Shown in pieces: positions 15,247 to 62,706 of a stretch of DNA of 64,000 nucleotides (position 1 is its first letter; each line of letters begins with the position of its first letter). The stretch spans positions 4,526,001-4,590,000 of the forward strand of contig JAQOWU010000008.1 in the NCBI GenBank assembly GCA_030867685.1, given 5' to 3'. The stretch comes from Wickerhamiella versatilis (taxonomy: Eukaryota). The translations under genes and the position numbers were made by a program. The notes beneath the pieces were generated by a model, which worked only from the letters and a program-made list of their open reading frames with translations, ran no database searches and was not told the DNA's origin.

Positions 15247-15254
15247 AAGACACA

Positions 15255-33748: not shown

Positions 33749-33779
33749 CTGAGAATAATTGGAAAATGCAAGATAGCCC
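33749..33779 (+). repeat. Dispersed boundary site
   Basis: CTGAGAATAATTGGAAAATGCAAGATAGCCC. Confidence 0.88.
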
Positions 33780-38726: not shown

Positions 38727-40210
38727 TTCTCATGACAATAACGATGGCAACCTCTTTTAATTCTAGGCATATAACGTCGAGTTTCTTTCAGTTCACTACG
38801 AGGTGGTGCTATATTCACCTCACGCCAGACAGGTTGTTGTCGCAATTGTTACTCTTTGTGGTTTGATTCAATCCTGGCTCTTGAAAGTTTCATTGCAAAT
38901 AATAGCTTTTTTTGAGAGGAGGTTTTTCATGTTTTTAGAGTATATAAGCAGATTATAATAATGTTCAAAGACTCCAATTCCAACTTCCATAAGTTAACCT
39001 TAGCTTACATTTTTCGAATTGAGTACAAATTGATAGATCCATAGGAGCTTTCAGGTATTTGTCAAACAGCGCATTCATTTTGATTCATGATAAATATGCC
39101 TCTGTGGTTCTTTCAAGTTACATATTATAACTATATCCATATGGTCACTAGATATGTATACTTAAAAATTGTGTTCAGCAAGGATACCAAAAATGCTTAC
39201 TAGTACAAAATTATACCATCTTTTGAGTAAAGAATGTAAGATCGGTATGTTATATCCTGAGATTGTTACGTGCATATGACAGATACCAATGCGTGATTCG
39301 GCAAATTACCGAGCTTCGCAGAGAACATTATTAGAGTCAACTAAAAAATAAAGAACTATGATTCTATAATTCATGTATGGCCTCGAAGCAAGCACGTAGG
39401 CCAATCAGACCTGTCGATTGGCTAGAACTATCGTTTGTGGATTTCGTTGGTTCCTGCTAAATGAAAATTATTGGAACTATCTTGCTTGGTTGGGCAACGG
39501 AAGAAACTAAACAAGCGCATAAACTTACGCCATACATAGTAATAGCATAAAAAATGAAGACACACAGACTCAAGAGTACTAGTTAGAATGTATGTAAAAT
39601 ATTAGGGCTGATGCTTGAGGGTTGGGGTTACGATGCGACATCACAACAAGCATTGCAGGAATATCTCTAGTCAGGAGCTTCATCACAGATGTTTTGTAGC
39701 ATGGTGCTCATTTTATTTCCTCAATATTGGCTCTTTTGTTAAGTATTTGTCTCGCAGGTTCTTCAGGAAATGCGTCGTATGCACCCGTAGCATTGATCAG
39801 TATTATGAAGAGCCTTGAGGCATACATGATTTAATGGTTACAAACGGTAGTCAAGACGTCCTAAACCGCTTTGCAAACTTTTTCAGAAATAAATTCTAGT
39901 AGATATAGAGTTAATGCTTGATGTATGGTAGTCCACTTTATACTCAATGTCTTCGGATATTATTCGTACGCCATGTTACTTATAAATATAGAAATGTGGA
40001 CAGAAGGCGAAGCCTGGAACAGGCAGCTATCAAGTTCAAATAGCAATACTCATTAGGAAATGTCCGTGAGGATTAGGAAACACACTGATTACCGGAGTAA
40101 ATGACATTCTCCGCATCACGCTCAGATCTGCGATCTGACAGACGCGGTATTTACACATGATGCAGCCCATGTTTTATTACTAACATCCTACGGACCACGC
40201 ACAACGCAGT

Positions 40211-41959
40211 ATGACACGTACATTTCATTCGCTCTTTTGGTTATTTCCCATACTTGTGCAAGATGTTTCGCTTGCATCTGCTTCTTCCCATCGAGACCAG
40301 CTATCCACTGATGCTTCTGGTCAGTCGACCAATTCCGCAGTGTCATGGAGTTCCCGTAACGCGAACATGGCGACAGTATCTGAGTGGATTATCGAGACTT
40401 CATCAGATATAGCGATAAGTTCCCCTGCACCCGGTGTCGAAACGATGATTAGCCCCCTACAGCCCACTCACTCTCATCCATTTGAAGGCCACAATACTAG
40501 ATCTGAGAGTGCTGCAAACCCTTCCATTCCTCCAGGTAATGAAGACGCGAATTCATACCATAAGAGAAATATGATAGTACGAGAGGATAATCATCGGCAA
40601 GTTACAGAAACTCATGCAGCTTCAGAAACTGGAATACGGCCCGTCCACACCCTAACCCTAAAGTCTAATGAAGGGCCGCTATTCCCATTCATCATACATC
40701 CCTCAATTTGGCTTCCTTCAATATCATATGTGACTATTCCCCCAATTGGCGCAAGCTCAAGCCTGTCCAGCCCTATTATTACTGGTTCCTCTTCAGTTCA
40801 AGAAACGCCCACAGGGCATCAATGGCCATCATTCACGACACCCAAAACTACTAGTGGAGTAATGAGCAAAACAACTCAAGCTATGTCTTCTGCCACACCT
40901 ACAAGTACAGTAGCATATTCGTTTGGATCGTTCAACAGCACACGAACTGATTCCATGGAGCCTACTTCTACAAGTCCATCTCTTGCCAAGGTAGCTTGGA
41001 CTCCCCCAGCCGCTTGTGCTTCTTATGCACAATATCCTACTATGTATTACGGGATGGACATGAATCAATTCAGAATAGATGAGCAAAATTGGGCGAACAC
41101 TATGGAGGGACAAACAATTGACCTTAATTTATGGAGCGAGTGTACCCCTCAATTTGATCTTATTGAGAACATGAAAATTGCTAATGTTTCCTATTACCCT
41201 AATCAGGGTAAAGAACTGCCGGTGAAAGGGCTTGAGGCTAATAAGGTATTGTGGTTCACTGAGACAGAAAATCGGACTCGTTCTGATCCCGTGGTCCTTT
41301 ATATACATGGTGGTGGGTTATTTTGGGGGATTTTGCCTTACCATGCTGCTGCTCTTGACCAGATCCTTAGTACAATTAATGTTCCGAGGCTCTCCTGGTT
41401 ATCTGTCGACTATACCCTTACAATGTACAAGAAATACCCTCAACAGTTGAGAGAGTTGGTTGCAGTTTACACAGAGTTATTGAAGACTACAGACAATATT
41501 ATTATAGTGAGTGACTCAAGTGGTGCTCATGAGGCTGTGGAGCTTTTAATTCACATGCAGTCGCCATTTCCAACGATTGATCCTGTCCCGGAGAATAATG
41601 CTACCAAGGCTTTGCTAATGGCATCCCCATGGATGGATTATTCCGGCTATTCAGACATCATATGGCTATACAATGCAGGTATCAATATATTTGGTACATG
41701 GTGGCAGAATACCTCTCATACTCCGTCGCAAGATACCACAATTAAGTGGGACAAAGTGATTCCACCGAAAACATTCCTGGTGTATGGTGAGGATGACACT
41801 GTGTTAGATCAAGTCAATTCTTTCAGGGAAAACGCAGGTAGTTCAATCGACGACAGCAATGTATATGAAGAACCACAGGGTGTCCACGATGGGTGGGTGA
41901 TATTAGGGAATCAGACCGTAGCCGATCATATTGCAGATTTCATTAAATCTGTAATATGA
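40211..41959 (+). CDS. Secreted esterase paralog 3 with a long Ser/Thr/Pro-rich N-terminal region
   Basis: Signal peptide, about 250-aa low-complexity stalk, DPVVLYIHGGG, SDSSGA, GVHD. Confidence 0.85.
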   Translation: MTRTFHSLFWLFPILVQDVSLASASSHRDQLSTDASGQSTNSAVSWSSRNANMATVSEWIIETSSDIAISSPAPGVETMISPLQPTHSHPFEGHNTRSESAANPSIPPGNEDANSYHKRNMIVREDNHRQVTETHAASETGIRPVHTLTLKSNEGPLFPFIIHPSIWLPSISYVTIPPIGASSSLSSPIITGSSSVQETPTGHQWPSFTTPKTTSGVMSKTTQAMSSATPTSTVAYSFGSFNSTRTDSMEPTSTSPSLAKVAWTPPAACASYAQYPTMYYGMDMNQFRIDEQNWANTMEGQTIDLNLWSECTPQFDLIENMKIANVSYYPNQGKELPVKGLEANKVLWFTETENRTRSDPVVLYIHGGGLFWGILPYHAAALDQILSTINVPRLSWLSVDYTLTMYKKYPQQLRELVAVYTELLKTTDNIIIVSDSSGAHEAVELLIHMQSPFPTIDPVPENNATKALLMASPWMDYSGYSDIIWLYNAGINIFGTWWQNTSHTPSQDTTIKWDKVIPPKTFLVYGEDDTVLDQVNSFRENAGSSIDDSNVYEEPQGVHDGWVILGNQTVADHIADFIKSVI

Positions 41960-42061
41960 GAAGCTAATAACATATTCTAAATCAGCATTGATTGGTTTAA
42001 GGTCCCTAGTAAATTCATGTTCCGGTCACGTGTATGAGTATTGTCTCCGATATATCACATG

Positions 42062-42093
42062 ACTCCGGGACTGGCTAGAAAACGCAAGATAGC
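42062..42093 (+). repeat. Dispersed boundary site
   Basis: ACTCCGGGACTGGCTAGAAAACGCAAGATAGC. Confidence 0.78.
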
Positions 42094-43312
42094 TACTCAA
42101 ATAATTAATTAAATTATGTATGAAATATTTTCGACTTGTTATCGATGGCTTGCACAACTAGGATTTCTCTTGAGTAACAAGTAATTCACAGAGTAGTTTA
42201 AATGCTTTTTTCAATGAGAAGCAATAGACTATGTAGGCAGGTGGTCGCCGTGGGCAGTAGAGGTGTCAGCAAGTCGGAAGTTTTCCTCATCACCTCTCTG
42301 TGCGCGCGGCTATTGTCATGGAGCTGCCAAAGAGCACGATATGGGGATGAGATTCCGTAATCAACGTTCCATGAAGAAGCCCGATGCTGACCTCCTAAGG
42401 CAGTCAAATACTCCATCTGTGGATATTACAAGAACAAGTGAAAGAAGGTAAATTACCCTCACCTTACCCGCATCATAACCCTTAAATAACGAGGTTTGCA
42501 TCTTAAGAAATCGCCGAGTAAGAATGCGAGACCTGAAGTACTCAACCCACCATACGGTAAATTTGATCTTTTTTTTTGCTTTAACCTATCTTGACTTCCT
42601 AAGACTTGTGAAAGGATTCAGAAATGTCAGCATAATATCAAGCGCGCCGTCGTAAACTGGCAATCGTTTACGACGCATCACTGTAGACGGAGACAATCAC
42701 TTTAAACTAACTAAGTGTGAATCATCGACCGCAGTGGTCAAATTTGTTTTTTTTTATTATTTATTGTGGTTTAATTTATGCTATTCCGAAGTAGCAAACT
42801 TTTTGTGATTATGATGTAAACGAGCATATGACATCATTCGACAAGTCGTTGTATGAGGGTAGCGAGCCATTTGGACCTGAACATGATGACAAAAATACCT
42901 TATGTTGATTTAAACTTTTGTTTTTTTGAGGTACTGTGTTGAAATTATCCACTCTACCTGCGACCATCCTAGTTTTAACGGTGAAGATCTGTGCCCCGAA
43001 AATATTACTAAGTTTCCAAATTTAGAATGATCAAATAGAAACAATTGTTCAAGAAGAGTGGCTGCTGACGTCCTAAAACATCAATTACATTTTTTTTTCA
43101 TTGTTCCTCTTCTCCCATATCTTGCATCGGCCGCGAGCCTCTCCCTGATAACCACGCACTCTAGGGATGCAGACGTTCACCTATAGCCCGTTGGCATGGT
43201 CGATGCAGTTAAGCTGGTGTGCGATACTGAATACCTTAAAATTTCTAGAGACCTCTTAGAAATTATTTTATTTTGAACAAATTTACAATTCCTTATAATC
43301 TTATGACTATTT

Positions 43313-43355
43313 GAACTTGTTGGAAAATGCAAGATACCCCACTTCACTACCTGAG
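43313..43355 (+). repeat. Boundary site at the left end of lipase cassette 1
   Basis: GAACTTGTTGGAAAATGCAAGATACCCCACTTCACTACCTGAG. Confidence 0.92.
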
Positions 43356-43806
43356 CGGCGTCAATGCAATGAATGATCAGTCGAAGCTAAATGGAAATAT
43401 ATGCTGAAAATTTTATGCATGTGCATATTAACCTCATCTGACTTCCTAAAGTATTAATAATTCTTGACTGGCTATCCTAGCTCGGCAGTCGTTGTCTAAC
43501 CCGCAGATCGACAATGTGAGACCAGTATTAGGGTTACCCAAGGTTTATTTGATCGTGATTATTAATTCGGGAATTAGCGCTACACGTCCTACACTTGTCT
43601 AATAGAGAGCATTCAAGATTCTGAGGCTTCCTAAGTCAGTTTTTGCTGTGAGAGGGATCCATACGCTGTGAAAAGGATAGCCCACTAATATCTAGCCAGG
43701 GTGTAAATTTGGGATGATCTTTTTGTAATACGTTACGACAATCCGGGCACGTAGATCAGAATATTAATGTCATAAATAATAATCTCGAAGGCTCCTTCCA
43801 TTAACT

Positions 43807-45135
43807 ATGATGTTTTTTCATACCATATTCACTCTAGGCACTGTTCTTGGTGCTGCTATACAAAAACGTACTGCTCCAAGTGATGATGCATTTTATACGG
43901 CTCCAGCAAATTTGACCAGCTATCGCCCGGGGGAGATTATCGACAGCCGCTCCGTTTATGCGCCGGCCGTTCTAAGAGAGGTGACTCAAATAAAATATGC
44001 TACGACCAATACTCAGAATTCTTCTTCATATACGATAGCCACCGTGGCATCCCCAGATAATATTCAGTATCCGCAAAAACTATTATCATTGCAAGATTGG
44101 CAGGATAGTTCAGGCAAAAATTGCGCGCCCAGCTATGGTTTCGCTACCGGTCTCCTTGGATCAGCTGGAATTACTACCTCAGTTATCGATATGCCCATAG
44201 TTCTTGAATGGGCCTTATCAAAAGGCTACTATGTTGTTGTTCCTGACCATGAGGGGCCCAATGGCGAGTTCACAGTGGGGCACACAGAAGGTCAGGCGGG
44301 ACTAGATGGGATCAGAGCAGCTATCTCCTACCTTAATCTCCCTGCAGACACAAGTACGGCAATTTATGGTTATAGTGGTGGCTCTCATGCCACAGCTTGG
44401 ATGGCAAATTTACATGAGTTTTATGCTCCTGAGATCAACATTGTCGGCTCAGCGACTGGAGGAACCGTTATTGACATGTATACGATGTACCACCAAATTG
44501 CTGGTACCCTTTTCTCGGGTTTCTCGTTTCCCGTTGTTGATAGTTTTGCTAGCGCTTATCCTGAACAGGGAGCACAGCTGATGTCGCACTTCAACAATAC
44601 AGCCAACGCTACACTTAATGATGCAGCTCAGGATGATGCATGTATCATCGAAGTCCTACTTAGAGGCGCTTTCCGTAATATTGGTGATGAGAGTGATCTT
44701 GATGATGTTTTATCTTTCCCTCCCGTAGTTGATATGTTTAATCGAGAAACCTTACTCAACAACGTGTCAAGTCTTACAGTATCGGCTCCAAAATTCCCTC
44801 GCTTTGATTATCATGCGCGTAATGACGAGATCGTTCCTTATTCAACAGCCGAGGCATACATCGAGCAGCAGTGCGCCCTTGGAGCAGATATCCAATCCAA
44901 GACATTTGATTTCGGTGGTCATGCTACTACGTTGATATTCGGTCTTCCTGGTGCTCTACAGTTCTTGGAGCAAGCATTTAATGGGGAAGTTCCCAAAGTG
45001 CAATGTGGTACTCAAAATTCTCAGTCGGTCAATATGAGCTCATCAAATGTGAATGAAGTGATTGGTAAGGGCACAGCCGATCGCCTTCGTGCATTTAATG
45101 GCAGGAACACGACGCTGGGAATGATTTCCTGGTAA
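43807..45135 (+). CDS. Secretory lipase (LIP/CAL-A family, lactone esterase-like), copy 1
   Basis: Signal peptide plus KR site, PSDDAFY, CAPSY, VPDHEG, GYSGG, GGH. Confidence 0.92.
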   Translation: MMFFHTIFTLGTVLGAAIQKRTAPSDDAFYTAPANLTSYRPGEIIDSRSVYAPAVLREVTQIKYATTNTQNSSSYTIATVASPDNIQYPQKLLSLQDWQDSSGKNCAPSYGFATGLLGSAGITTSVIDMPIVLEWALSKGYYVVVPDHEGPNGEFTVGHTEGQAGLDGIRAAISYLNLPADTSTAIYGYSGGSHATAWMANLHEFYAPEINIVGSATGGTVIDMYTMYHQIAGTLFSGFSFPVVDSFASAYPEQGAQLMSHFNNTANATLNDAAQDDACIIEVLLRGAFRNIGDESDLDDVLSFPPVVDMFNRETLLNNVSSLTVSAPKFPRFDYHARNDEIVPYSTAEAYIEQQCALGADIQSKTFDFGGHATTLIFGLPGALQFLEQAFNGEVPKVQCGTQNSQSVNMSSSNVNEVIGKGTADRLRAFNGRNTTLGMISW

Positions 45136-45208
45136 TGATGGCCAGGTGTAGTTGTACAGGTAAATACATGGCCATACACAACCTCTTGGTTTCCACAATA
45201 TAATCCAG

Positions 45209-45250
45209 TTTACTACTCGAGACTGTTTAGTCAACGCAAGATAGTCCACT
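45209..45250 (+). repeat. Boundary site at the right end of lipase cassette 1
   Basis: TTTACTACTCGAGACTGTTTAGTCAACGCAAGATAGTCCACT. Confidence 0.88.
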
Positions 45251-45445
45251 ATTGTAGTGTCTATGATTGCAGATATGGATTAGCTAGATGGTAAGAGAGG
45301 AGGTACCTGTATGAAATAACGCGTATTCTAAGGACCAGACTCTATCAGAATTCTATTTGTCATACTTCCTTAGATTTATAAAAATATGTTAATTCTATAG
45401 AGCCTTAGCTTCAATCTACAACATGCTTAAATATTATAAAAAAAA

Positions 45446-47284
45446 CTATGATGATTTACAATCGTTCATAAGACTGTTTCTAGGCCAATCATATCCCGCA
45501 TCGCCCCAAGCAGTTAAATTTGGATTCGTATAGGCCTTTAAGTGGTCCTGGATATATCCCGTGGTCTCAAATCCAGGTGGATCGCAAGTCAATGATTCTT
45601 TTCCTTCCTCTTGATAGATGCGGACGTAGTCAATTTCTTGCACTGTGGGGAATACCAAGTCTAGATAATCGAGGTAGGTAGCCCAGTTCGTAGAAAAGCC
45701 CAAGTTCATGACAATTGACATGGGTTCCTTCGAAATCGTGCGCTGACCGACGTTACCATTTGGACTAAGCGCACCCGCATACATGGTATAAGACGGATTT
45801 TCGCCCACATACCAGGATATGTAACCCTCAGTTTCATTGTTATTGACTTCGAGACCATATCTCTGAAATGCTCTTTCTTCCGAGTAGTCATACCACTGCT
45901 GATTTAGATAAGTAACAGCCGAACACGCTTGCTGGAAAGGGCCGCCATTCCATGAGTTCATCTGTGTAACACTTAGGTTAGTGATCTCGATGAAATCGTA
46001 ATCAACCATCCACCATATATCCATAGGTGCCACCTGCAATGATTGCGATACTGTACCGCATCTCGGGATTTCTGAGCCATTAGCATACTTTACAGGGTCG
46101 GCCATAGCACCTTCGATAACATCTATTTCTGGTGCACCGCGTCCCGTACCCGGCGTGGGATGATCTTCTCCTTTGCAAGTACATTTAGAAAGCTTTTGGC
46201 CAGGGAGATAGGAAATACCATCGTGAGAGCTTTGGTTAGGGGTAATACCAGCGTCACATTCATTATAACTGTAGGGCCAGACCCCCTCGGTGGATGCGAG
46301 AAACCCAGGACGCCCTAGGTTACCCATTGTCCATATACCAGGCCACAGGCCCGAAACATTTCCCTTACCAGGAAGACGTACGCCAAATTCTATGTATCCT
46401 TGTGAATAGCACAATTTATTCCAGGATTGGATCATGGCCGACCTGTAGTTGAGATTGTGGTTCCTATAAGCATCCAGACGAATGTGAAGGGTTCCGTTCT
46501 CAGTCCAAGCTGCATCAGGGCTATACCACTCCAAATCCTGGGTTGCTGAACCATACCAAAAATCTGGCGCTTCCCAGAAAGGATCGTCGCCACTGTAAAA
46601 GGTTCTACCCTCCACATTGAACTCATCACTGAACACAAGCTTCATCTCGTTACCTGATACAGGAGATTTACGGGTCTTAGCATCATCTGGCGTGTCGTCG
46701 TCGATCAAATGGCGTAGTGCCTTTAACCTGCCGTAACTATAGGGCGATAATCGGGAAATCTGGTTTGGAGCCGGTGTACTCTGGGCTGGACCGGTGAAGT
46801 CCAATAGAGGGAGCACGATGAATACAACTATAAATCCGGCGAGTAGAAGTAGGAATGCAATAAGACATCCCCACCCACGCGAGTCAAGTTTGTGGCATTT
46901 TCGCTCTTCTGCCGCGTCCACAATAGGATCAGGGTTATGCAAATAGTCATCAGCCTCTTTCTCGTTGAGCTTCAACGGAAACTCCGATGCTGGATATCCA
47001 CCAAATGGACTGAATTCATTAGAACTCAAGAATGGATCAGTTTCATCCACCGAGGATATAGACATTGTGCGGGATAGTCCGGATGCTGCAGGTGGCGCGA
47101 GAAGCGAAGCTCCCGGCGTTGTGCTTTGAGGATATCTATCCAATGCACCAAAAACAACATGCTCTTCTCCAGAAGACCTTTCTCTGGAGTTGGTAAACGG
47201 ATCTGATATCTGATCGCTGGGCTCATCCGGAAGAGACTGGTAATTACGGCTCGAACCTCTGCCTGACCCGGTAATCGTTCTCAT
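45446..47284 (-). CDS. KRE6: KRE6/SKN1-family GH16 beta-1,6-glucan synthesis protein
   Basis: Type II TM segment, LVFSDEFN, DLEWYSPDA, GLWPGIWTMGNLGRPG, GRGAPEIDVIE. Confidence 0.93.
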   Translation of the reverse strand: MRTITGSGRGSSRNYQSLPDEPSDQISDPFTNSRERSSGEEHVVFGALDRYPQSTTPGASLLAPPAASGLSRTMSISSVDETDPFLSSNEFSPFGGYPASEFPLKLNEKEADDYLHNPDPIVDAAEERKCHKLDSRGWGCLIAFLLLLAGFIVVFIVLPLLDFTGPAQSTPAPNQISRLSPYSYGRLKALRHLIDDDTPDDAKTRKSPVSGNEMKLVFSDEFNVEGRTFYSGDDPFWEAPDFWYGSATQDLEWYSPDAAWTENGTLHIRLDAYRNHNLNYRSAMIQSWNKLCYSQGYIEFGVRLPGKGNVSGLWPGIWTMGNLGRPGFLASTEGVWPYSYNECDAGITPNQSSHDGISYLPGQKLSKCTCKGEDHPTPGTGRGAPEIDVIEGAMADPVKYANGSEIPRCGTVSQSLQVAPMDIWWMVDYDFIEITNLSVTQMNSWNGGPFQQACSAVTYLNQQWYDYSEERAFQRYGLEVNNNETEGYISWYVGENPSYTMYAGALSPNGNVGQRTISKEPMSIVMNLGFSTNWATYLDYLDLVFPTVQEIDYVRIYQEEGKESLTCDPPGFETTGYIQDHLKAYTNPNLTAWGDAGYDWPRNSLMNDCKSS

Positions 47285-47336
47285 AGGATTAATAGAAGAG
47301 TTCCAGTTCTAGTTCTAAAAAGGAATCAAGGGGTCG

Positions 47337-47364
47337 GAGATCTGGTTGGACAATGCAAGATAAC
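47337..47364 (+). repeat. Dispersed boundary site, about 50 bp upstream of the KRE6 ATG
   Basis: GAGATCTGGTTGGACAATGCAAGATAAC. Confidence 0.9.
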
Positions 47365-47757
47365 TCGCCCTCTATTTTTAGAAATGTGGCTCAAGTAGGG
47401 TAAGGATGTCAACATCTGGTCTTTCTTGTAGAAATAAAGCCTAGTTGATTCGGCATTTTTCTCCATCTAGCTAAGTTTTATTTCAAACCGGTTGCACGAT
47501 GTAGAATATATATCATCATAGTGTCGATATCTCATTAATAAGGTGTGAATGTGGGGAAATGTACAAATTCCACCCCGGGTTATACGAGTTCATGACTCAT
47601 GGAATCAGTAAGCTATTGTTTTATAAGGACGTAGCTAATACCTTTCGGAAAGTGTAACTGAATTATAAACTCCATCTAGAGTGGCGATAATATCATATTT
47701 TGTTTTTGAAAGAACCCAACAAAGCACCCAAAATCGATCGCGATCACCATGTTCTTA

Positions 47758-47783
47758 ACCTGAGACTGGTTGGACGATACAAG
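47758..47783 (+). repeat. Dispersed boundary site
   Basis: ACCTGAGACTGGTTGGACGATACAAG. Confidence 0.88.
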
Positions 47784-48726
47784 TCCTTGAGCTATTTTAT
47801 TATTTGAGATTAATTCCATGCCACAAGATGACACGAATTATATGATGCCAAATCTAGGTGCATAATGATATCTCATAGGATGCGCTAACTATATTTAGGA
47901 AGATATTTTACATAGGATGTATTTTAGTCAACATGATTAGACGTCTCGTCTTTTGGCTTGTTGCATGCATTGCGTTGTAGTTCATAACTCTCGTCAGTAG
48001 CGTTACCGTAGCATTCTGGATTGAGTCTGACGCGTTTGGCTTTAGTATATTTCGGGAGAGTGCAAGAGACCCAACAGGATGAGATATCCATCCTAAAGGA
48101 GATCTTTGGGACAGTATAAGATAAGTTAAGCCCACTCCTCTGAAATTATAATGATGGGGATCAATAATATTTGATTATAAAAAGAATTTAAGTATCTTTA
48201 TTCATAAGAACAGTATTATCAATGACGCTCTGTTACTTCGACGATATGATTCGTATGCTGCGTTGAAATTCAAGAATCTACCGGATAAAAACTTCAATCA
48301 CAGGTCAAATACAGAAGTTAATAATCGCAATATATCATTGCTTTCCTCATTCAGGTCTGTACATGATGTCTCCTCAGGATACATCATATTTTCAGAGGTG
48401 TATAGAGAATCTGGCTCGTCTGGCATCCGCACACGTTTAGTACCACGCAGATCTGATTTGAGATTGGAGGAACAGGAAGGCTAGGTGCCTTGACGGCTAC
48501 AACCTTCTCTTAAGTATTCGATAAATGCCTTTTTCAGAATATTGCGGAAAATGATTCTCAATTTTGGTCCCTCTGAATTGTCAGAAGCTTGCGACATCAA
48601 ATTTATCGTCTCTTCTTCCATAAATGCTTTACGTATTTTGTACTCGGCCTTTAGAAATTCATCAACTACGGTTTCAGAGCTCTTGGCCGCTTGAGAATAC
48701 TGTTGGATCGAATTCAATAATTCCCT

Positions 48727-48975
48727 TGCTCCCCTTATACTGATGAATACCTGTATGAGGATGTGCGTGGCTTTGTATTAATTCCTTACATGGGTCATGG
48801 CAATGGGAATCCTATGAGGGGTGGTAAAGTTGTTTCAGATGCGTTGCTGCCGCCTGAATACACTACAGGGAGGAGTTGGGAAACAGCGAGCTTTACTGGT
48901 TCTTATCCTCTGCCAATTCAAGAAAAGGTAGAAAAAGAGTGGAGTTCGATTGGGTTTGGAAGAAAGCAGATTTAG
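48727..48975 (+). pseudogene. FDC1: Isolated 3' fragment of ferulic acid decarboxylase
   Basis: [73 protein letters not shown] closely matches the fungal Fdc1 C-terminus; no upstream Fdc1 sequence. Confidence 0.88.
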
Positions 48976-49563
48976 TACAAGAACAGCAAGCGAACACTTT
49001 ACTATACCTACATCTGTCAGAGGATAGAAATGTTTTAGATTGGGCAATATTGTCAAATAGAATACCACTAGCAGTGCAAAACAGCCCACTTCAGTACCTG
49101 ATACCTGTTGGATTGTGAGCGATAGGACCATGAGGTGACATAGTGCAAAATGGTGCGGCAAAGTAGGGACCCATTTAACGTTCAGTGCCGTAAATACGTC
49201 ATTTTTTTATGTGGTTTTATTTATATTATACTAAGATCTTCATCTATAAGATCATTATTTTGATGCCGGTGCAAGTAGGATGTGATTATTGAGCAAAGCG
49301 TGAGTAAAGACATTACTTACCACACCTGCGATATGTCACCCTCGGAAGGGACTCTCTAATCTAAAAGACTTGCAAATTACGCATTTGAAGGTATTCCCTA
49401 TCTGCAGTCGATGATCGTCAGGATTCATTTGACTTTTATGGTCTGAACAGATCTTGTAGATATATTTACCGTACCAGCTGCACTTTGCTCCTTTTGTGTG
49501 ATATGAAACAATAGTAATATCTATAGCTACCATGAGCTAGTTATAGCGTTCCCTTTATTCCAA

Positions 49564-50643
49564 TCACTTGTTTTTCATCCATTCTAAAATAGTAGCTTTG
49601 ATGGTAGCTCCGCTTTCTCCGTACTTATAGTTGTAGTGGTTACCATCCAGGTAAGACAAGTTCAGGTTTGGGGTTCGCTCTCCGAGACCGTCTATCAAGA
49701 TCTTAGTTTCAATGTTATCCCCATTCATCATCCAAACCTTCAATTTATCCACTGGCAGATACTGTCGATACATTTTACCGCTGATAATTCCAGGAATAAG
49801 TCGGTTGAAAACATACCATTGATATTTAAGCATTCCATGACTTGTGTCGGAATTTCTGCCCTTTGTGAGAGCCGTCAAAGCACTAGCAATGTTTGAGCCA
49901 AGTTGGTTGTTTAATGCTCCTGCATCTGCGGCGTGTAGAGCTTTAAGAATATCAAGTAGCTTATCTGCGATCCATTGAGGGATACCAATCTGCACCAGCA
50001 CTTCTGGGATGACGGGTATAGAGACTACTCCCATATAGGAGATGGAAGCCCACTGCGCTAAAACTTGCGTAAGATTCTGCTGATTATGTACGAGATTTTT
50101 GGTCTGGTCTATCAGCGATTGGGTGGCCAGATCAAAGGATGGAACTCCTACAGAAAAAATGGTCCCAATGGAGCCATTTTCCGGATGCATATCACAGTAT
50201 TCTGAAGCAATAAATGGTGACCAAGCCTCTCCAAAAACAGCTACTTCCTTGTTTGGTGCCGCAGCTTCAATGACAGCACCCATATCTTCCGCCAGGTTAG
50301 GGAGACTGTAGTCCCATATGCCCCATGGATGCGCACTTTTCCCGGAGCCACGCTGATCATATAATATCACGTGTAAGCCTCTATCGGCCATGTCTGCGGC
50401 AAAATCATCAAAAGTTTCAGCTGACACGGGCCATCCACCTGTGATTATGAGTGTAGGATTTGTAGGGTCGCCATATTCGTAGTACGACACAGCTAGGCCT
50501 TGAGAATAAGTAAACTGAAGAGAGCTAGCATTCGGAAAATTGCTAGGTACATCAGTAGTAGACGAATCGTAAGGCGCTACTGTAGAGACTGTAACGCCGC
50601 CAAGCACGCCATGAACTAAGGTACACAACAAAGGCAGTATCAT
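49564..50643 (-). CDS. Secreted alpha/beta-hydrolase-fold protein with non-canonical catalytic motifs
   Basis: Signal peptide; YGDPTNPTLIITGGWP, YDQRGSGKS, VFGEAWSP, DGNH. Confidence 0.75.
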   Translation of the reverse strand: MILPLLCTLVHGVLGGVTVSTVAPYDSSTTDVPSNFPNASSLQFTYSQGLAVSYYEYGDPTNPTLIITGGWPVSAETFDDFAADMADRGLHVILYDQRGSGKSAHPWGIWDYSLPNLAEDMGAVIEAAAPNKEVAVFGEAWSPFIASEYCDMHPENGSIGTIFSVGVPSFDLATQSLIDQTKNLVHNQQNLTQVLAQWASISYMGVVSIPVIPEVLVQIGIPQWIADKLLDILKALHAADAGALNNQLGSNIASALTALTKGRNSDTSHGMLKYQWYVFNRLIPGIISGKMYRQYLPVDKLKVWMMNGDNIETKILIDGLGERTPNLNLSYLDGNHYNYKYGESGATIKATILEWMKNK

Positions 50644-52050
50644 TTCCGTTGCTGTTACAACGCCCTGGTCGGCGGTTTATATATTAGTAAAAAATAACAA
50701 CTCGCGTAGCATATTTACCGTAAATTTGTGACACATGGGTTCAAAACATGGAGTTTGTCTTGTCAGATACGGAAATTAAAGGCTATAAATCTATTAGTGC
50801 ATACAGTTCAAACGAAATAGAATAAAATGTCTCCGCTTCCCTAACTGAGACTACCTGAACACAATAAGGGGTAGATCTCTAAGGCCAGGGCTGGGTGTAC
50901 CCTTGCTTGCTCAGTGTACCCTTACCTTGCCTTATACGCAAAGCACTCGGGCAATATTAAATGTCCTAAATATTAAAGGACTAATTGAGGGACAAATATT
51001 ATCTGGTAACATATTGAACTTTTCTAGAACTGAAATATATCATTTGCGTGGCGGAAATAGCAAGATCATATTGATAGGTATGTATTCCATCTGTCGAGCC
51101 ATGCATGCTTGGGCTGGGAATTGATCTGGTGTTGAGACATCGGATAGTATACGAGCCGTACAGCGCTTATCCCTAAAGTAGGAAGTGCTCCAAATAGACT
51201 CATCCTGGCAATTAGTACCCACGTTATGAAGGTTCTCTTCAAAATACCTCCCCTGGTCACAATACAAGTTCTTTTTCCATTGCAACTTCATTAAATAGAC
51301 CACAATTCGGAGTCTTGGTGAAACATAGCCCCACATCTCTCGATTATTTGCATTGAACACAGGGTCATCCGAATTTGTCCAGCTTGTCCGCCTTCTGGTA
51401 TGAGAGGCGACCATTGGTGGGAACCAATAGGAGATGGCAGTACAGGTGGGCTTGAAACTCAACGGAGTACCCGCTGAGAACGCGGGCAAAATGTGCCGCA
51501 ATTATGGGTGTTCTATAACATATATTTATATATTTTGTGACACAGCTAGAATCAACAAAAATAGCTAGATTCTCTATCTATTAAACAATGAAATGAGTTA
51601 ATGCTCGTTTATACCCTCATGAGAGATGCTACAAGTATGCTCAAAAAAGAAACGCAGAATTATTGTTCCTTGCAAACCCCAGTGCTTCTAAATATGAACA
51701 CACAGAAAGAAAAGGTGCTTAGCTAGAAGTAGCCATGGACCAAGTAGTCATAAAAAAAATGTAGTTTGCGTGTACGTAATGGGCAACCTTATACTTTTGA
51801 CGAATTCATCTTTATGCCAACAGAATCAGAGTGCGTATCAATTGTACAGTAAATTAAATAGAATCAAGAAAACAAAATGACAGTATTTGCCTAGAGACAC
51901 ATCCTCATAGCCTTATTCGGCAGAAGCGAGCCATCATGCATAGTAGTTATCTAGAAGTAGTGCTTACTGCACCACCGGATGTACGCTTATTAACACGGGT
52001 TGTGTTCATTGTGCTCGGCGAATGCTCAGTTTGTTAGAAGATTCAAGGGT

Positions 52051-52093
52051 GACTGGTTGAGCAATACAAGATATCCCACTTCACTACCTGAGA
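52051..52093 (+). repeat. Boundary site at the left end of lipase cassette 2
   Basis: GACTGGTTGAGCAATACAAGATATCCCACTTCACTACCTGAGA. Confidence 0.92.
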
Positions 52094-52612
52094 TACGTCA
52101 ACACAATAAATGATCAGTCAAAACCAAATGGAAATTTATGTTAGAAGTTTTATGTTGGTGCATTTTAATTTCACCAGACTCCCTAAAGTATTAGCGTTTC
52201 TTGACTCTATATTCTAGCTCTTAGCAGGACCTCATGAAGCTCGACTATTATTTACTATGCATCCCCGCAAATCACAATGTGAGACCAGTTGATTAGGGTT
52301 GCCCACTTTGTTTGTTTCGCGTAGGTATTAATGCGGGGATCATAATTCCTGCCCTGCCATGTACTTGTCTGATAGAGAGCATTCAAGATTCTGAGATTTC
52401 CTAAATTTTCGCTAATAGAGTGGAAATGCAATTAGTGCTTAAATGTACAGTAATGATTAATAAGTCGGTATTTGTCACGAGGGGGTCCGTACGCCCTGAA
52501 AAGGGCCAGGTTATAAATTTCGAGTGGGGTATGATACATTCCGAGAATCCTGGCATGTAGATCAGAGCACGAAAGCCATAAATAAGGATCTCAAAGACCC
52601 ATGTTGTTAACA

Positions 52613-53941
52613 ATGATGCTCTTTCATGCCTTATTCACTCTAGGCACTGTTCTCGGTGCTGCTATACAGAAGCGTGCTGCTCCAAGTGATGATGCGTTTT
52701 ATACAGCTCCAGAAAACTTGACCAGCTATCGTCCGGGGGAGATTATCGACAGCCGCTCCGTTTTTTCATCGGTTATTCTAAGGGAGGTGACTCAAATAAA
52801 ATATGCTACGACCAATACTCAGAATTCTTCTTCATATACGATAGCCACCGTGGCATCCCCAGATAATATTCAGTATCCGCAAAAACTTTTATCAATTCAA
52901 AATTGGCAGGACAGTGCCGGCAAAAATTGCGTGCCCAGTTATGGTTTGGTCACCGGTCTCCTTGGACCGGGCGGATTTACTACCTCGATTATCGATATGC
53001 CCATAGTTCTTGAATGGGCCTTATCAAAAGGCTACTATGTTGTTGTTCCTGACCATGAAGGGCCCAATGGCGAGTTCATAGTGGGGCACACAGAGGGTCA
53101 AGCGGGACTAGATGGGATAAGAGCAGCTATCTCTTACCTTAATCTCTCTGAAGACACGGACACGGCACTTTATGGTTATAATGGCGGCTCTCATGCCACA
53201 GCTTGGATGGCTAATTTACATGAGTTTTATGCTCCTGAGATCAACATTGTCGGATCAGTGACTGGAGGAACAGTTATTGACATGTATGCGATGTACAACA
53301 AGATTGCTGGTACCGTTTTCTCGGGGTTCATATTTCCTGTTGTTAATGCTTTTGCTGACGCTTATCCTGAACAGGGAGCACAGGTGCTGTCGCACTTCAA
53401 TGGTATAGCCAACGCTACACTTTCCTATGCAGCCCAAGATAATGTATGCATCATCGGAGACCTACTTGGAGGCGCTTTCCGTAATATTGGCGATGAAAGT
53501 GATCTTGATGATTTTTTGTCCTTCCCTCCTTTAGTTGATATATTCAATCGAGAAAGCTTACTCAACAACGTGTCAAGTCTTGCAGTATCGGCTCCAAAAT
53601 TCCCTCGGTTTAACTATCATGCGCTTTTAGACGAGATTGTGCCTTATCCAGCAGATGAGATGTACACCGAGCAGCAGTGTGCTCTTGGAGCAGATATCCA
53701 GTTCCAAACATTTGACCTGGGTGGGCATGCTACCACAATGTTATTTGGTCTTCCTGGTGCTCTACAATTCTTGGAACAAGCATTTCTTGGGGAAGTTCCT
53801 AAAGTACAATGTGGTTCTCAAAATCCTCAGTCGGTCAATATGAATTCATCAAATGTAGATGAAGTGATTGGTAAGGACACTGCCGATCGCATCCGTGCAT
53901 TTAACGGCAAGAACACTACGTTGGGAATGATTTCCTGGTAA
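52613..53941 (+). CDS. Secretory lipase copy 2; nucleophile Ser replaced by Asn (GYNGG)
   Basis: Collinear and highly similar to 43807-45135. An alternative in-frame ATG lies at 52601. Confidence 0.9.
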   Translation: MMLFHALFTLGTVLGAAIQKRAAPSDDAFYTAPENLTSYRPGEIIDSRSVFSSVILREVTQIKYATTNTQNSSSYTIATVASPDNIQYPQKLLSIQNWQDSAGKNCVPSYGLVTGLLGPGGFTTSIIDMPIVLEWALSKGYYVVVPDHEGPNGEFIVGHTEGQAGLDGIRAAISYLNLSEDTDTALYGYNGGSHATAWMANLHEFYAPEINIVGSVTGGTVIDMYAMYNKIAGTVFSGFIFPVVNAFADAYPEQGAQVLSHFNGIANATLSYAAQDNVCIIGDLLGGAFRNIGDESDLDDFLSFPPLVDIFNRESLLNNVSSLAVSAPKFPRFNYHALLDEIVPYPADEMYTEQQCALGADIQFQTFDLGGHATTMLFGLPGALQFLEQAFLGEVPKVQCGSQNPQSVNMNSSNVDEVIGKDTADRIRAFNGKNTTLGMISW

Positions 53942-54014
53942 AGATGACTAGGTGAACTTGTGCAGGTGAATAAATTGTCGTAGATGAGTTCTCGTTTTCC
54001 ATAATATACTCCAG

Positions 54015-54056
54015 TTTACTACTCGAGACTGGTTGGAGAATGTAAGATAGCCCACT
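54015..54056 (+). repeat. Boundary site at the right end of lipase cassette 2
   Basis: TTTACTACTCGAGACTGGTTGGAGAATGTAAGATAGCCCACT. Confidence 0.92.
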
Positions 54057-54084
54057 AATGCCATGATAAGGGCAACGAGATGAC

Positions 54085-55887
54085 TTAGTGAGCTGCAATT
54101 AGTTTTAGTCGTTCTTGGTTCCAAGAACTCAGGAGATTATAGATAATCAAAGAGGAGACATAAAACATGATAGAAGGCGTGGCAAGATACCAAAATTGCA
54201 AAACGTCATCGCTCAGGACTTCTGTAGATTCAGCATGCCTATACATGCACATTAAATTATCAATTGAAAGCGAAATAATACACCATAATAGTATATATCC
54301 AGAGAAAAACATGGATTTGCTATCATTTGATTTTTGATACTTTGATCTTTTCTTCATTATGTAGAGCACGAAAAATGCACCACCATATTCTATTGATACC
54401 AATGGAATAAAAAATAGAAAGTTTGTAAGACTATCCATGCCATAAATGCTTTGAAAACCTAGCTGTCCACATATTTGAGATAATAAGAAGAGCCTGTTCC
54501 TCCAGTATGAAAGTTCATTTTTTCTATGCACTGAGAGCATGTTGAGTACTGAGCAAATTATACCCGTATGTGCCAAAACGTTGCAAGATAGTAGGAACCC
54601 ATCGAACATCACTGATGATGATGCTGCAGTATATGATAGTACTATCATAAGCAATACAGGAATTATAATCACGTTTTCCGGACATAGAACATGAGATCCA
54701 ATCAAAGCATATGCGAAGTAAAAGAAAAATAGGTCGCAGACTAAAATTGGAAAATCAAAATACCCTCTAATGTACGAAAGACGGTCGAATATGTCATTAA
54801 AATCATTGATTATTTCATCTATTTCGAATTTGTCTCCCACTTTTCCTGCTGAAGCTTCATTAAGAAACCTGTACTTCCTGTCAACATGAATGCGTATGTA
54901 CAGGTGGACAATAAAGTAACCAGTTAGAATGATTATTATCAACCCATGGAGAAAAAGAAGCAACCTATCTTTTTCCACGACTGACTGGCGTGTGTATGGA
55001 ATTTTGCACCTCACCGACGGCATATCAGTAGTTCTTCGTTCACTTGCTTCCCATGTGGCTAAAATATTGAACATAACCATCGCAGTAATACAGGTCATCA
55101 CACAGATAATTGAAACTGTACCCTCTCCCCACCAAAGAGTGAAAGAAAGAGGATCCTCACGATATGCGGATGATGGATCTTCCCATGTCTCCATTTTCTG
55201 ATGGACATTTGCAGCAGCGATTCCAAAAACTGAGAAAAATATTGTAGAAACATTTAGAGTTCTAACAATAACGATGTCCCTTGTGTCTCGGAAATAAACT
55301 TTTTTTGACCCAATTAATACAGCCATAGTTATCGAGAGGCCGCCCAGGGGTAATAATTGGAATAATTGGGTATATTCTAAGGATTTGGGAATATCAACCA
55401 TAAAAGCTATCAAGCTTGGGAATAATATCAAAGCTAAGGAAAAATATTTCCACTTTGGTATCACGATCTTTGCCTCTGGAGACAAGGAATCCATTATTAC
55501 GCATAGAAAACCCCAAAGGTTGATTAACTCACATATCCCTGACCCAATATCAAAGAAATGGGTACTCATTTTGAGCACTGTTAGTATAATACTTAGAAGT
55601 GACATTAAAGAATATAATGATGCAGTTATAATGGAAGGTAGTCGAGACCCAAATGGAATCAAGATTGCAGACAAACTGAATATAGAATATATAATAGGTC
55701 GTGACTGAGGGCAAAATCTCCAATAGAATGCGGTAGGATCGTCATATATAGTGACTATAGATTCCAATGTAAATGCCAAAAAAACGAGTAGAGGAATGCG
55801 CTTCGTTCCGATATTACGCATTATACCATTTTTGTATTCCTTATAATTGTCTGAGCAGGCAGCAGAGGGGCTATCCTGCATCCTCAT
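54085..55887 (-). CDS. Orphan multi-pass membrane protein, AT-rich
   Basis: About 600-aa ORF with many hydrophobic segments; no family recognised; start uncertain. Confidence 0.7.
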   Translation of the reverse strand: MRMQDSPSAACSDNYKEYKNGIMRNIGTKRIPLLVFLAFTLESIVTIYDDPTAFYWRFCPQSRPIIYSIFSLSAILIPFGSRLPSIITASLYSLMSLLSIILTVLKMSTHFFDIGSGICELINLWGFLCVIMDSLSPEAKIVIPKWKYFSLALILFPSLIAFMVDIPKSLEYTQLFQLLPLGGLSITMAVLIGSKKVYFRDTRDIVIVRTLNVSTIFFSVFGIAAANVHQKMETWEDPSSAYREDPLSFTLWWGEGTVSIICVMTCITAMVMFNILATWEASERRTTDMPSVRCKIPYTRQSVVEKDRLLLFLHGLIIIILTGYFIVHLYIRIHVDRKYRFLNEASAGKVGDKFEIDEIINDFNDIFDRLSYIRGYFDFPILVCDLFFFYFAYALIGSHVLCPENVIIIPVLLMIVLSYTAASSSVMFDGFLLSCNVLAHTGIICSVLNMLSVHRKNELSYWRNRLFLLSQICGQLGFQSIYGMDSLTNFLFFIPLVSIEYGGAFFVLYIMKKRSKYQKSNDSKSMFFSGYILLWCIISLSIDNLMCMYRHAESTEVLSDDVLQFWYLATPSIMFYVSSLIIYNLLSSWNQERLKLIAAH

Positions 55888-56074
55888 CGACAACAAGCTC
55901 AATATGAGACAGCAGCGAGATAGAAGAAACCGTGATTAGTAACAAAATTCGTGCACCAGCACAGCAATGTATTTCTATGCATGAATATGTTAATAAGTCG
56001 GCTATAGTTGCAACTATTTAACGTTTGACAGATTGCCATAAGCAACCATAATGTAGTAAGATAAATATGTTATG

Positions 56075-56092
56075 TGGTTGGACAATGAAAGA
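56075..56092 (+). repeat. Dispersed boundary site, partial
   Basis: TGGTTGGACAATGAAAGA. Confidence 0.7.
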
Positions 56093-56142
56093 AAAAATAT
56101 GTGCTCAAACCTGAATTCCGATGGTGATTATAGGACAAGAAG

Positions 56143-58025
56143 TCAGCATATACAACACTCATCGTGAGAGTCAGCAACCTCCACAGATTGAATTGGTTCT
56201 GAGGAACTCGCAGCAGACACTGGTGAAATATAACTGGGTTTATTTATGACTTCAGAAACCGCATTTACCATCTCACAAAGGGGGTTTTTGTCATAATCGA
56301 AAGGCCAGGTGTCTTGTGACACTATTTTTGAAATTTTGTCCATGGATTTGTTATCAAAACCAGTTATTTCGCTATCCATACAATTCGATTGCGTTTTCAA
56401 AAGAATTGCCAGATAAACTGCAATTGCACTGCGAACTGAAAGGCTTAAACTGCCAATTTCCTGGGTACAAGTGTCAAATAACAGCTGTGCAGCATTAGTG
56501 AGCTTTTGCAGTGAAGCCCGTCTTAATTCCAACGAACAGAACACATTAAACGCTGCAAACGAATGAACAGCTATAACTGTATGGTAATATTCTGCCCTCA
56601 ACTCGACCCAAGGAAAGGAGCACAGGATGCTTTGAATATCTCCTTTGCCAGAAGGGTTTATATTCCACAAATCTTCTTCTATGTGAAACCGCCAGGTCTC
56701 AAGCCGCTGATCGAGTCTAGTCATATCCTCAACGATTTGTTGCAATGACACCCTTCTTGTGCCTACTGAGCCGAGAAGTTTACACACATCATCATAAATA
56801 AGATGGATTCCAGTAAAATAATCGAAATTTTGAACCACAATCACTGAAAGCGTCTTCTTTGATAGACTACTCACTCCTTTATCGGACAAAATAGGTTTAA
56901 TCGATAAATGAATACCAAATGAGTAGTTGATAGCGGTTAATAATAACCATACATACTCACGGCGTCCAGATTCAGCTTTAGAATACTTTGAGTTTTCCTC
57001 CTCGCTGTCTAACCCAAGGCTTCTAGCCATAGCCACCACTGTCTCTAGGAAATGCGGTACTGAATGAACAGAGCTAAAAACAGTCATCGTAAAAAGTAGT
57101 GACAAACACAACCTCACCTCTAGAAACCCGGGGTCGCTAAGGGTCAGAACCCGGAGTGTTTCCAGTGCTTTAAGATACGCACAGGCCTCTTGCGACCTCA
57201 CTACGTATGGAACATCACTCTTTGATTCAGCTCTTATTCCGTTTATGCCAATTATAAATATTGTAGAGAAAATTCCATTTCTGATATGTTCAGGATAAGA
57301 ATTAATGCCAAGTGCAAGGTCCTCTGGTGAAATTAGGACATGGAAAAAATTATCTTTCATTTTCATATAGATGTCAAGACACCTTTCAAAAATTATACTG
57401 TCATAAGTGACTATACTTGGAATATTGAGTAACTGTGAAAAGGATAACTGATAAGCTCTCCACATTGCTCGAGAATAATCATTAAGACGCTGCCACAACA
57501 ATAGATCTCCTGTGGCTTGCAAGAGATGTGCTACATCCCCCGGTGTCAAAATTGAGCAGAATATATTTGGCGCATAAGATATATTGCTTAACGACATGTC
57601 GACAGTCTGTTGCTTAAAGCAGAAAAGTCCTTCATTGAATTCTCTTTTTTGAACGTATTTTCAGTGTCTGTACTAGGAGGTAACTCCGTATCTGGACGAC
57701 TTCGACTTATCGCGTTTGGACTATGTTCATGTTCATGTTCATGCCCATGCTGAGTTGAGACTGAGACTAGTCTGGGAGGGCATATCGGTTCGTCATGATG
57801 GTCTCTTTCATATTTATTTTCCAAGTTCTCAATTCTCAACATGAGGGCAGTCCATAATTCTCTGGCAGGTGTCCGCGAGTGACTTCGATAAACGCATCGC
57901 AGTCCAGAACTGGAACAGTTTTCACATGCCGGAGAAGCTGCATCACAGCGTGCTTTACGTTGACGGCAACTCTCACACGCTATCGATGCACGTACTCGGC
58001 TTCTTTTTTCAACTCCCCCAGACAT
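56143..58025 (-). pseudogene. Zn2Cys6 transcription factor split by a frameshift at about 57590-57660 (or a sequencing error)
   Basis: ACESCRQRKARC...CENC...C in the 5' ORF; fungal TF middle domain (MARSLGL...RREYVW) in an overlapping second frame; no clear intron. Confidence 0.7.
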
Positions 58026-58792
58026 ACCAACAGGGCGAATCGATGATAAGTAATTATGTAGTCATACGTCACAGACTAGACTCTCCGTGAGAGATACATG
58101 ATAGCGTAGATTGTTGTGGATCGTTGGAAAATACACGAGTATTTGACAGTTTGACAAAACCAAGCAAACCAGCTTACTAGCAATGTACCTTTCAAGTGAA
58201 CTTCGTCGTTAGAGTTAGAGATAATGGCTTTAATTGTAGTAGTATGGGTTTGCAAATTGTTTAGAGAGCATAAGCAGGGGTGTTGGAGTGATCTATAAGG
58301 ATCACTTGCTATTTTATAGGAGGAAGAGACGAGAAAGTGCTATTATGGGGTCTTTTCTTTTGAAGGTATTCGCGAATATACTGAACCATGACGGCATGTT
58401 CTAACTCTATAGTGACTGGTTGCCTCGTTATCATTAATAACCTAACCCCTTGGATATAGTTTTCCGTTCGGCGCTTACCCAGTGTAAGTGGCTTAGGAGC
58501 CAGACCCAGATCTACAACCCTAGTAGTGATTGGCGGCTAACCTTTTCCGAAACTATGACCTATAGTTACTTTTGGGTATATGTGAAGCTTAACAGCATAT
58601 TATAATATATCACAATCATAATAATATAGTTATCTATATGTTAAGACTGCTTTCTCAATATCTATAAAGTACGTGCGTGTCATTGACTGGTACTCCATCT
58701 GATCATATGACTAATATATGCCTCTCATACCCTAGCTTTATCAGGTCAGTAGACTAGACTAAGCTGCACTGTCTAACAAGTATCAGGTTGCT

Positions 58793-62672: not shown

Positions 62673-62706
62673 GCTATCTGAGACTAGTTGGACGGTGAAA
62701 GATAGT
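62673..62706 (+). repeat. Dispersed boundary site, full 34-bp copy
   Basis: GCTATCTGAGACTAGTTGGACGGTGAAAGATAGT. Confidence 0.85.

Follow-up and report, generated by a model that had tools for sequence, protein, structure and literature searches.

A secretory lipase gene and its upstream region occur twice in a 64,000-nt stretch of the Wickerhamiella versatilis genome (contig JAQOWU010000008.1 of assembly GCA_030867685.1, positions 4,526,001 to 4,590,000 of the forward strand; this whole stretch is called the window below), and the duplicated DNA is delimited by one short intergenic repeat at both ends of both copies, far beyond what chance would give. As a duplication it belongs to a known type; its bounding repeat, in contrast, is undescribed and has an odd organisation. 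The duplicate points to recombination at this repeat, the mechanism itself going beyond the data. The window is best explained as a gene-family-rich, accessory-looking piece of a budding-yeast chromosome, divided by the repeat into gene-sized blocks.

Edges of the duplicated block

Sensitive blastn comparison of positions 42500-46000 with 51200-54900 returned one long match (43315-45254 with 52052-54060, 81.15% identity over 2016 columns), and beyond it only matches of at most 31 nt with E values of at least 0.77. A preliminary description of this DNA had regarded 43313-45250 and 52051-54056 as homologous through the upstream region, the open reading frame (ORF) and the 3' region, which was borne out by this single block. 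In a global alignment with the flanks included, the left flank matched at 19 of 40 positions (47.5%), the left motif at 23 of 30, the following 12 nt at all 12, and the upstream region at 308 of 428 (72%), with 115 gap columns in addition. The coding sequence (CDS) was conserved at 1174 of 1329 positions (88.3%) and the 3' region at 38 of 56; a degenerate unit ahead of the right motif reached 27/29 (93%), the right motif 23/30 (77%, as the left one), and the right flank 24/49 (49%). Identity was found to fall to 47-49% within a few nucleotides of the repeat edges on both sides. The homology edges lay at the motifs and not well past them, the similarity starting at the left site and stopping at the right one as had been described, and the flanking words quoted in that description were correct.

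The duplicated segment comprised the lipase gene and about 460-520 nt of upstream DNA. Demonstrably duplicated DNA was limited to 43344-45220 and 52081-54026, with the joints in or at the sites. All four boundary sites stood in direct orientation, on the plus strand. The left site of copy 1 (43312-43369) consisted of a 30-nt head (43314-43343), an 11-nt tail (43344-43354) and a degenerate second unit, altogether 1.5 units with an nhmmer score of 27.0; it was followed by the non-coding region upstream of lipase 1 (43370-43806, plus strand), in which indels and conserved islands were seen and identity to copy 2 was 72%. At the right site of copy 1 (45195-45250, score 23.2), a degenerate unit preceded a 30-nt head running to CCACT, and homology stopped 1-4 nt further on. 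For copy 2, the left site (52049-52098, score 25.8) was composed of a head at 52051-52080 and a tail at 52081-52091, and the right site (54004-54056) had the best repeat score in the window (27.9).

The two copies lay 8.7 kb from each other, and the 6.8 kb between them held a gene of the SKN1/KRE6 family, an alpha/beta hydrolase gene and small ORFs. The earlier statement that the copies are separated by 6.8 kb of unrelated genes and do not form a simple tandem was thus confirmed. A larger tandem made of the lipase and its right-hand neighbour was considered and rejected, the KRE6 protein and the 605-aa protein encoded next to copy 2 being unrelated (E 1.4). For this 605-aa protein, no Pfam family was found and no atlas match above 0.79.

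Agreement between duplication ends and repeat would be coincidental if the repeat were an ordinary intergenic regulatory or boundary element, for instance a composite factor-binding site with a GATA-like core, given that only whole-gene duplicates with intergenic end points survive. The strictly intergenic position of the sites (none of 16 in ORFs) and their uneven conservation, with a CAAGATA core unchanged in the four boundary sites, are in line with such an element. However, both end points lay a few nucleotides from site edges, and the chance of both donor end points falling there was about 3e-4 even within spacers, by rough arithmetic assuming random positions within their own intergenic spacers. 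Nor did the sites keep a fixed distance or direction to genes, and a regulatory site predicts neither a strand bias over 60 kb nor tandem units, both of which are described below. Coincidence was consequently regarded as improbable.

The preliminary description also held that the site-to-site segment had moved as a unit. Duplication of the gene and its 460-520 nt of upstream DNA was upheld; that the sites travelled along with them was not. The two left sites were alike at 23 of 30 positions, as were the two right sites, and any two of the ten best repeat copies shared 21.5 of 30 on average (sd 2.0, range 17-25, 45 pairs). Judged by these comparisons, the boundary pairs appear to be no more alike than any two copies and cannot serve to show that the gene was copied together with its sites, so the repeat sites may already have been present at the target before the duplication. 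Boundary pairs differed even at well-conserved positions, CAAGATA being invariant in all four. The joints fit either a segment that carried its sites or conversion of, or integration into, sites present beforehand.

Structure and distribution of the repeat

The repeat is an intergenic unit of about 36-41 nt, made of a 30-nt head (e.g. GACTGGTTGGAGAATGTAAGATAGCCCACT at 54027-54056) that is extended in some copies by an 11-nt tail (TCACTACCTGA at 43344-43354). At 11867-11909 and 49073-49125 the tail runs directly into the next head, from which it follows that the unit is some 41 nt long and that units can follow one another head to tail. A matrix scan for the head detected 21 copies in the window, against 0-2 in 20 shuffles, and nhmmer with a consensus trimer gave 16 hits scoring at least 10, where the best shuffle scores were 2.1-7.5. 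These 16 hits are referred to as strong copies. Similarity between copies ended at about 41 nt. No array with a period of about 41 nt was reported by Tandem repeat finder at its thresholds, the dimers being too degenerate for detection.

Fourteen of the 16 strong copies were on the plus strand (binomial p 0.004; 12 of 14, p 0.013, when one of each duplicated pair was left out), and 8 of the 16 sites held 1.2-2.2 units. The phases at which copies end were clustered (Rayleigh p 0.005), those at which they start were not (p 0.50). No strong copy fell within an ORF, with ORFs occupying 61% of the window (p 3e-7). A copy was present in 13 of 32 intergenic spacers, and 6 of the 10 spacers between 30 and 55 kb contained a strong site; the cluster at 15.6-30 kb (nine spacers) carried one only at its right edge. 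Distance and direction relative to genes were not fixed, sites being located 86-110 nt past stop codons (42069, 45221, 54027), 460-520 nt ahead of the lipase ATGs and 11-156 nt ahead of other ATGs on either strand. The unit of promoter plus gene that had been proposed for this DNA is therefore not general, because blocks with sites 11-156 nt from an ATG (58753, 47340, 30107, 11884, 1088) lack room for a promoter of their own.

Several of these properties would be expected if the repeats were scars, that is, interstitial telomere-type remnants of former chromosome ends brought in by terminal additions or subtelomeric exchanges. Each event would leave one or two telomerase-made units pointing to the chromosome end, and the lipase block would have been copied in one exchange. 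The same-strand bias of the copies whatever the gene direction (14/16), the head-to-tail partial units (8/16) and the clustering of end phases without that of start phases, as if synthesis stopped at the template end, are in agreement with this origin, and so is the subtelomere-like gene content of the window (hydrolase, transporter and zinc-cluster families, pseudogene remnants). The 41-nt unit is also inside the range of 5 to 43 nt given for putative yeast telomere units (PMC7857110). For candidate yeast groups, literature searches on telomeric repeats yielded no unit sequence in the main texts. However, the consensus unit (A12 C11 G9 T9) has no G/C strand asymmetry. Some 16-25 separate events would be needed within 64 kb, and most of the blocks nevertheless contain an entire gene. 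In addition, the start-phase estimate is blurred by the poor alignment of degenerate units.

The repeat could alternatively represent the end of an unrecognised gene-carrying mobile element, such as a transposon of the rolling-circle type or another kind prone to capture. Ends on the same strand would remain between captured genes after its read-through or nested insertion, and the lipase block would be one transposed unit. Discrete copies dispersed at many loci would be accounted for, as would the end phases, which cluster near the end of the 30-nt head like a fixed 3' end; same-strand runs of element ends do occur in capture-prone elements. Among the 34 window ORFs covered by the Pfam scan, however, no transposase, helicase/Rep or reverse transcriptase domain was detected. 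Terminal inverted repeats and subterminal hairpins were lacking as well: the longest stem in a unit dimer was 4 nt, and five of six copies folded no better than shuffles (z 0.15 to 1.02), the remaining one (z -1.98) not having this in common with its paralogous copy. No target-site duplication was seen by eye at single copies, and the likeness among copies stops at about 41 nt. We consider such an element very unlikely.

Least probable in our estimate is a dedicated integron-like system of site-specific recombination that would insert, excise and shuffle gene cassettes at the site. Sites in direct orientation do part blocks of mostly one gene or none (6 of 10 spacers at 30-55 kb), the duplicated unit extends exactly from site to site, and a one-site circle entering an existing site would multiply same-strand sites. 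Conversely, no recombinase or integrase domain was present in the 34 ORFs, all from the 64-kb window, and the site has neither the inverted arms nor the hairpin of tyrosine and serine recombinase sites and attC. Genes run in both directions inside the blocks, likeness among the repeat copies is 72%, and even positions of highest conservation vary within the boundary pairs. Sites at 11-156 nt from several ATGs also imply that the blocks are not self-contained cassettes.

Nine motif strings were not found in the relevant full-text papers; one reverse-strand 12-mer occurred in two unrelated papers, on mouse and human. A scan with a degenerate 21-nt core gave two metagenome, one prokaryote and no viral loci in collections from which this yeast seems to be absent, and these were taken as chance matches (single copies, one of them inside an ORF).

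The repeat in other strains

Contigs of four runs were compared with positions 40000-58000 at 88% or more identity. In isolate X12, summed contig depth was 1445 in the bin with the left site of copy 1 and 644 in that with the right site of copy 2, versus about 100-250 elsewhere. Summed depth at the repeat rose 5-11-fold, and the extra X12 contigs each had single-copy depth (118-143). Contigs ended or forked at 43322/43355, 47342/47362, 52076/52093 and 54018-54058; up to seven were common to one site and then diverged, and four went on past 52093 as a further unit. Since contigs fork at the sites and continue as further units, the repeat is present at many loci genome-wide, often as a dimer. 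This sustains the part of the preliminary description in which the site was seen as a boundary: the repeat is oriented, occurs genome-wide and is where contigs of other strains fork. Its qualification as a 'functional' recombination site found no support, with no recombinase in the scanned ORFs, no symmetry or hairpin and no empty site in the four runs.

Run X20 was about 4-5% diverged. One of its contigs (3195 nt) was colinear over 51115-54291, which comprises copy 2 and both of its sites, and another fitted 47758-48136 and was unlike the window to the left, at the site of about two degenerate units at 47742-47828 (plus strand). Copy 1, KRE6 and the outer flanks had no cover in X20; this run may be RNA, and the lack of cover was not counted as absence. 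One X12 contig agreed with lipase 1 as far as 43903, a position within the CDS, and continued with repeat sequence; this is no more than a hint that arbitrary break points can adjoin the repeat. Telomere scars would explain both the X20 contig that departs from the window left of 47758 and the X12 contig that leaves the lipase CDS, the latter also being in line with a mobile element. A high-depth collapsed array of units, on the other hand, was not found among the contigs, a weak argument against scars as diverged copies may not recruit a perfect array. On balance, we hold an origin from former chromosome ends to be unlikely.

The many 'joints' with sides of 20-27 nt were not deletions but reflected motif-to-motif similarity from other loci.

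With regard to sequence divergence, X12 differed from the window by only about 0.3-0.8% from 44436 onward. About 35 differences in 270 nt were counted within 40132-40440, at the start of the hydrolase gene at 40211-41959; these dense differences could represent a conversion tract or an introgressed piece.

Origin of the duplication

Recombination at dispersed repeats, by which the site-to-site lipase block would have been copied, was ranked first among the explanations, and we give it about an even chance of being correct. It needs nothing beyond what is seen and yields direct repeats at the joints. The lipase gene with its upstream region would have been copied to a second place 8.7 kb off, with both joints in repeat copies, through one of two routes. 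Gene conversion of one repeat-flanked interval by another is the first. For the second, a circle would be excised between two direct repeats and then reintegrated at a third, a route that would increase the number of same-strand sites as well. Conversion and circle integration are both compatible with four boundary sites in direct orientation. Since then, purifying selection has acted on both lipase copies. In budding yeasts, 30-50 nt of homology are enough for efficient recombination, and dispersed repeats are frequent at the ends of segmental duplications in Saccharomyces cerevisiae. Our attribution of the joints to the repeats, and of the event to a particular pathway, is inferred from the end points together with the oriented, intergenic and genome-wide distribution of the family.

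A number of observations weigh against this explanation. The present copies are only about 72% alike (21.5/30), which makes them a poor substrate for homologous recombination, so the event would date from a time of greater likeness. Homology alone explains neither why the repeat flanks unrelated genes nor why 14 of 16 copies are on the same strand, and one duplication is one event. Contigs of the four runs contained no long-sided joint removing or emptying a block and no presence/absence variant, and the empty site for which the preliminary description had proposed a search was not seen among them. Finally, self-comparison of the window gave, besides the lipase pair, one DNA-level repeat, a local tandem at 34997-35396 (units of about 192 nt, 72% alike), and its ends are not at a repeat site.

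The lipase genes

Lipase 1 (43807-45135, plus strand) and lipase 2 (52613-53941, plus strand) both encode proteins of 442 aa, lipase 2 if translation starts at position 52613 (446 aa with the in-frame ATG at 52601). Both were assigned to the secretory lipase family PF03583 (177.3 and 171 bits, cut-off 23), lipase 1 as a homologue of CalA, and the alignment with Candida antarctica lipase A (PDB 2VEO, 3GUU) was full-length (residues 23-438, E 3e-96 for 2VEO). A hydrophobic N-terminus was visible by eye in both. Copy 1 had the GYSGG nucleophile motif, the D of DEIVP and the H of GGH, which we take to be the Ser, Asp and His of the triad, following the positions assigned in the CalA structure papers. 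Copy 2, unlike copy 1 and C. antarctica lipase A, had Asn in place of the nucleophile Ser (GYNGG), its codon at 53180-53182 being AAT instead of AGT. The representative of the 90% cluster (P0003) retained Ser and was otherwise identical to copy 2 in the alignment. Copy 2 of this strain may be catalytically dead.

The two proteins were identical at 370 of 442 residues (dS 0.28, dN 0.087, dN/dS 0.31). With a dS of 0.28 and this dN/dS ratio, the duplication is fairly old and purifying selection has since maintained both lipases. Among named relatives, the nearest were CalA-type lipases of ustilaginomycetes, which are basidiomycetes (about 35-41% identity), followed by actinobacterial proteins (33-35%) and LIP proteins of ascomycete yeasts (about 32%); several paralogue-like proteins were at 45-62%. 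On the basis of these identity levels, transfer of the lipase between fungal groups is possible.

Relation to known systems

Dispersed and segmental duplications mediated by repeats are familiar in yeasts, where non-allelic recombination or break-induced replication takes place between long terminal repeats (LTRs) or tRNA genes. The lipase duplication is similar in that the block ends inside direct-orientation dispersed repeats and that a gene-sized unit was copied within one region. Unlike LTRs and tRNA genes, the repeat measures only about 36-41 nt, has no recognisable transposon, tRNA or other RNA-gene origin, is biased to one strand and is present in 13 of 32 spacers. The sole gene duplication in the 64-kb window has ends that match the repeat to a few nucleotides.

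Interstitial telomere-like repeats edge subtelomeric duplicons in human subtelomeres, at X-Y' junctions of S. cerevisiae and at bdelloid rotifer chromosome ends. Short oriented head-to-tail units at block boundaries in a variable, gene-family-rich region are common to these and to our case, which differs in the lack of G/C bias and in very small blocks, mostly of a whole gene or without any ORF of at least 120 aa. In bacterial integrons, cassette arrays are separated by attC sites. There, too, gene-sized units are parted by one site type on one strand, and the unit duplicated here is site-to-site; the host is however a eukaryote, no integrase was found in the window, the site does not form hairpins, and genes lie on both strands.

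According to the available part of a study on Wickerhamiella and Starmerella (PMC13376923), chromosome 'end' domains may be longer than 500 kb; they are enriched in AT, show weak expression and gather horizontally acquired genes. Very few transposons were recognised in them, and the mode of DNA incorporation is placed outside the scope of that paper (PMC13376923, same part). The window resembles these domains, as they are portrayed there, by its accessory-type genes, by lipases whose nearest named relatives come from other fungal groups and by source runs that include food fermentations. Such a repeat is not mentioned in that part of the paper (PMC13376923).

A broader and rather doubtful idea, put forward tentatively, is that part of the accessory genome forms an array of gene-sized blocks with a single type of oriented site (about 41 nt) between them, and that blocks are added, duplicated and exchanged at this site. 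It could work by telomerase-seeded terminal addition, leaving a scar at each step, or by site-directed recombination. Such an array, if real, would correspond in a eukaryote to the cassette arrays of bacteria, and it might explain how some yeasts acquire foreign genes and retain them near chromosome ends. If gain, loss and duplication of blocks proceed site-to-site genome-wide, the repeat would mark how this yeast builds its variable gene content; if the unit is a telomere unit, the region would be a readable record of successive additions to a chromosome end.

Gene content and other repeat copies

The window has 41-45% G+C, with the ORFs long and uninterrupted. Its gene content is fungal: besides SKN1/KRE6 (745 bits), Pfam matches included Zn2Cys6 and fungal-specific transcription factor domains, MFS transporters, three Say1/Mug180-type hydrolases, a sulfatase and an amidohydrolase, among others. 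Rfam (gathering score) and tRNA scans of the window gave no match and no tRNA. The best named matches of the KRE6 protein were from budding yeasts of several orders (Trichomonascus, Nadsonia, Sugiyamaella, Lachancea and others) at only 54-61% identity, with closer matches at 83% and 75%. Since the named matches are this distant across several orders, the source is a budding yeast that lacks any close annotated relative. Sequencing runs containing the stretch were food, food-fermentation and sediment metagenomes and coded isolates; none of them was listed as RNA.

Around the lipases, the first of the same-strand sites at 42-54 kb is located at 42056-42093 (plus strand), about 100 nt past the stop of the gene at 40211-41959. 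The SKN1/KRE6 gene (45446-47284) forms the next block after copy 1 on the minus strand, opposite to the lipases, and a plus-strand copy at 47342-47368 lies 56 nt upstream of its ATG. A degenerate dimer at 49073-49125 (plus strand, score 20.7) was missed by the first matrix scan. The alpha/beta hydrolase gene between the lipase copies, identified through Pfam, is at 49564-50643 on the minus strand, and the gene to the right of copy 2 (54085-55902, minus strand) has its stop 29 nt from the right boundary site. Elsewhere in the window, plus-strand copies were recorded at 1079-1115, 9708-9746, 11867-11909 (where the tail of one unit is continuous with the next head), 30106-30131 (74-100 nt ahead of the ATG at 30210), 33746-33781 and 62674-62721. 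On the minus strand, one of only two strong copies is located at 15216-15247, and a weaker one at 58731-58802 abuts the ATG at 58793.

The copies at 15216-15247 and 30106-30131 form the left and right edges of a run of about 15 kb with 10 ORFs and no strong repeat site within. They are inverted relative to each other, with their 5' ends toward the cluster, whose genes comprise two FAD monooxygenases, an epimerase, a hydrolase, an MFS transporter, an FAD oxidase, a zinc-cluster factor and two ORFs without a family. A 51-nt unit is repeated 1.9 times at 91% identity at 11265-11363, within the spacer on the upstream side of the 11867 site.

Two genes were found in pieces. An MFS transporter at 7703-9508 (minus strand) is divided between two ORFs 175 nt apart, and an intron is likely. 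The zinc-cluster factor at 56143-58025 (minus strand) is split into an N-terminal ORF (57588-58025) and a second one (56143-57597) that overlap by 10 nt; a frameshift or a short intron may be behind this.

Ten stop-to-stop frames from the ORF-poor blocks at 42.2-43.0 and 47.9-49.2 kb were also scanned, and their sole match was a marginal one to the UbiD C-terminal domain. It covers the last 35 positions of that domain (48721-48972, plus strand, E 1.9e-4, below the gathering score) and looks like a remnant of an FDC1-type decarboxylase. A gene for a UbiX/PAD1-type flavoprotein is present at 2139-2831 (plus strand). At 48620-48742, the 121 letters of the window correspond to 394 letters in run X20.

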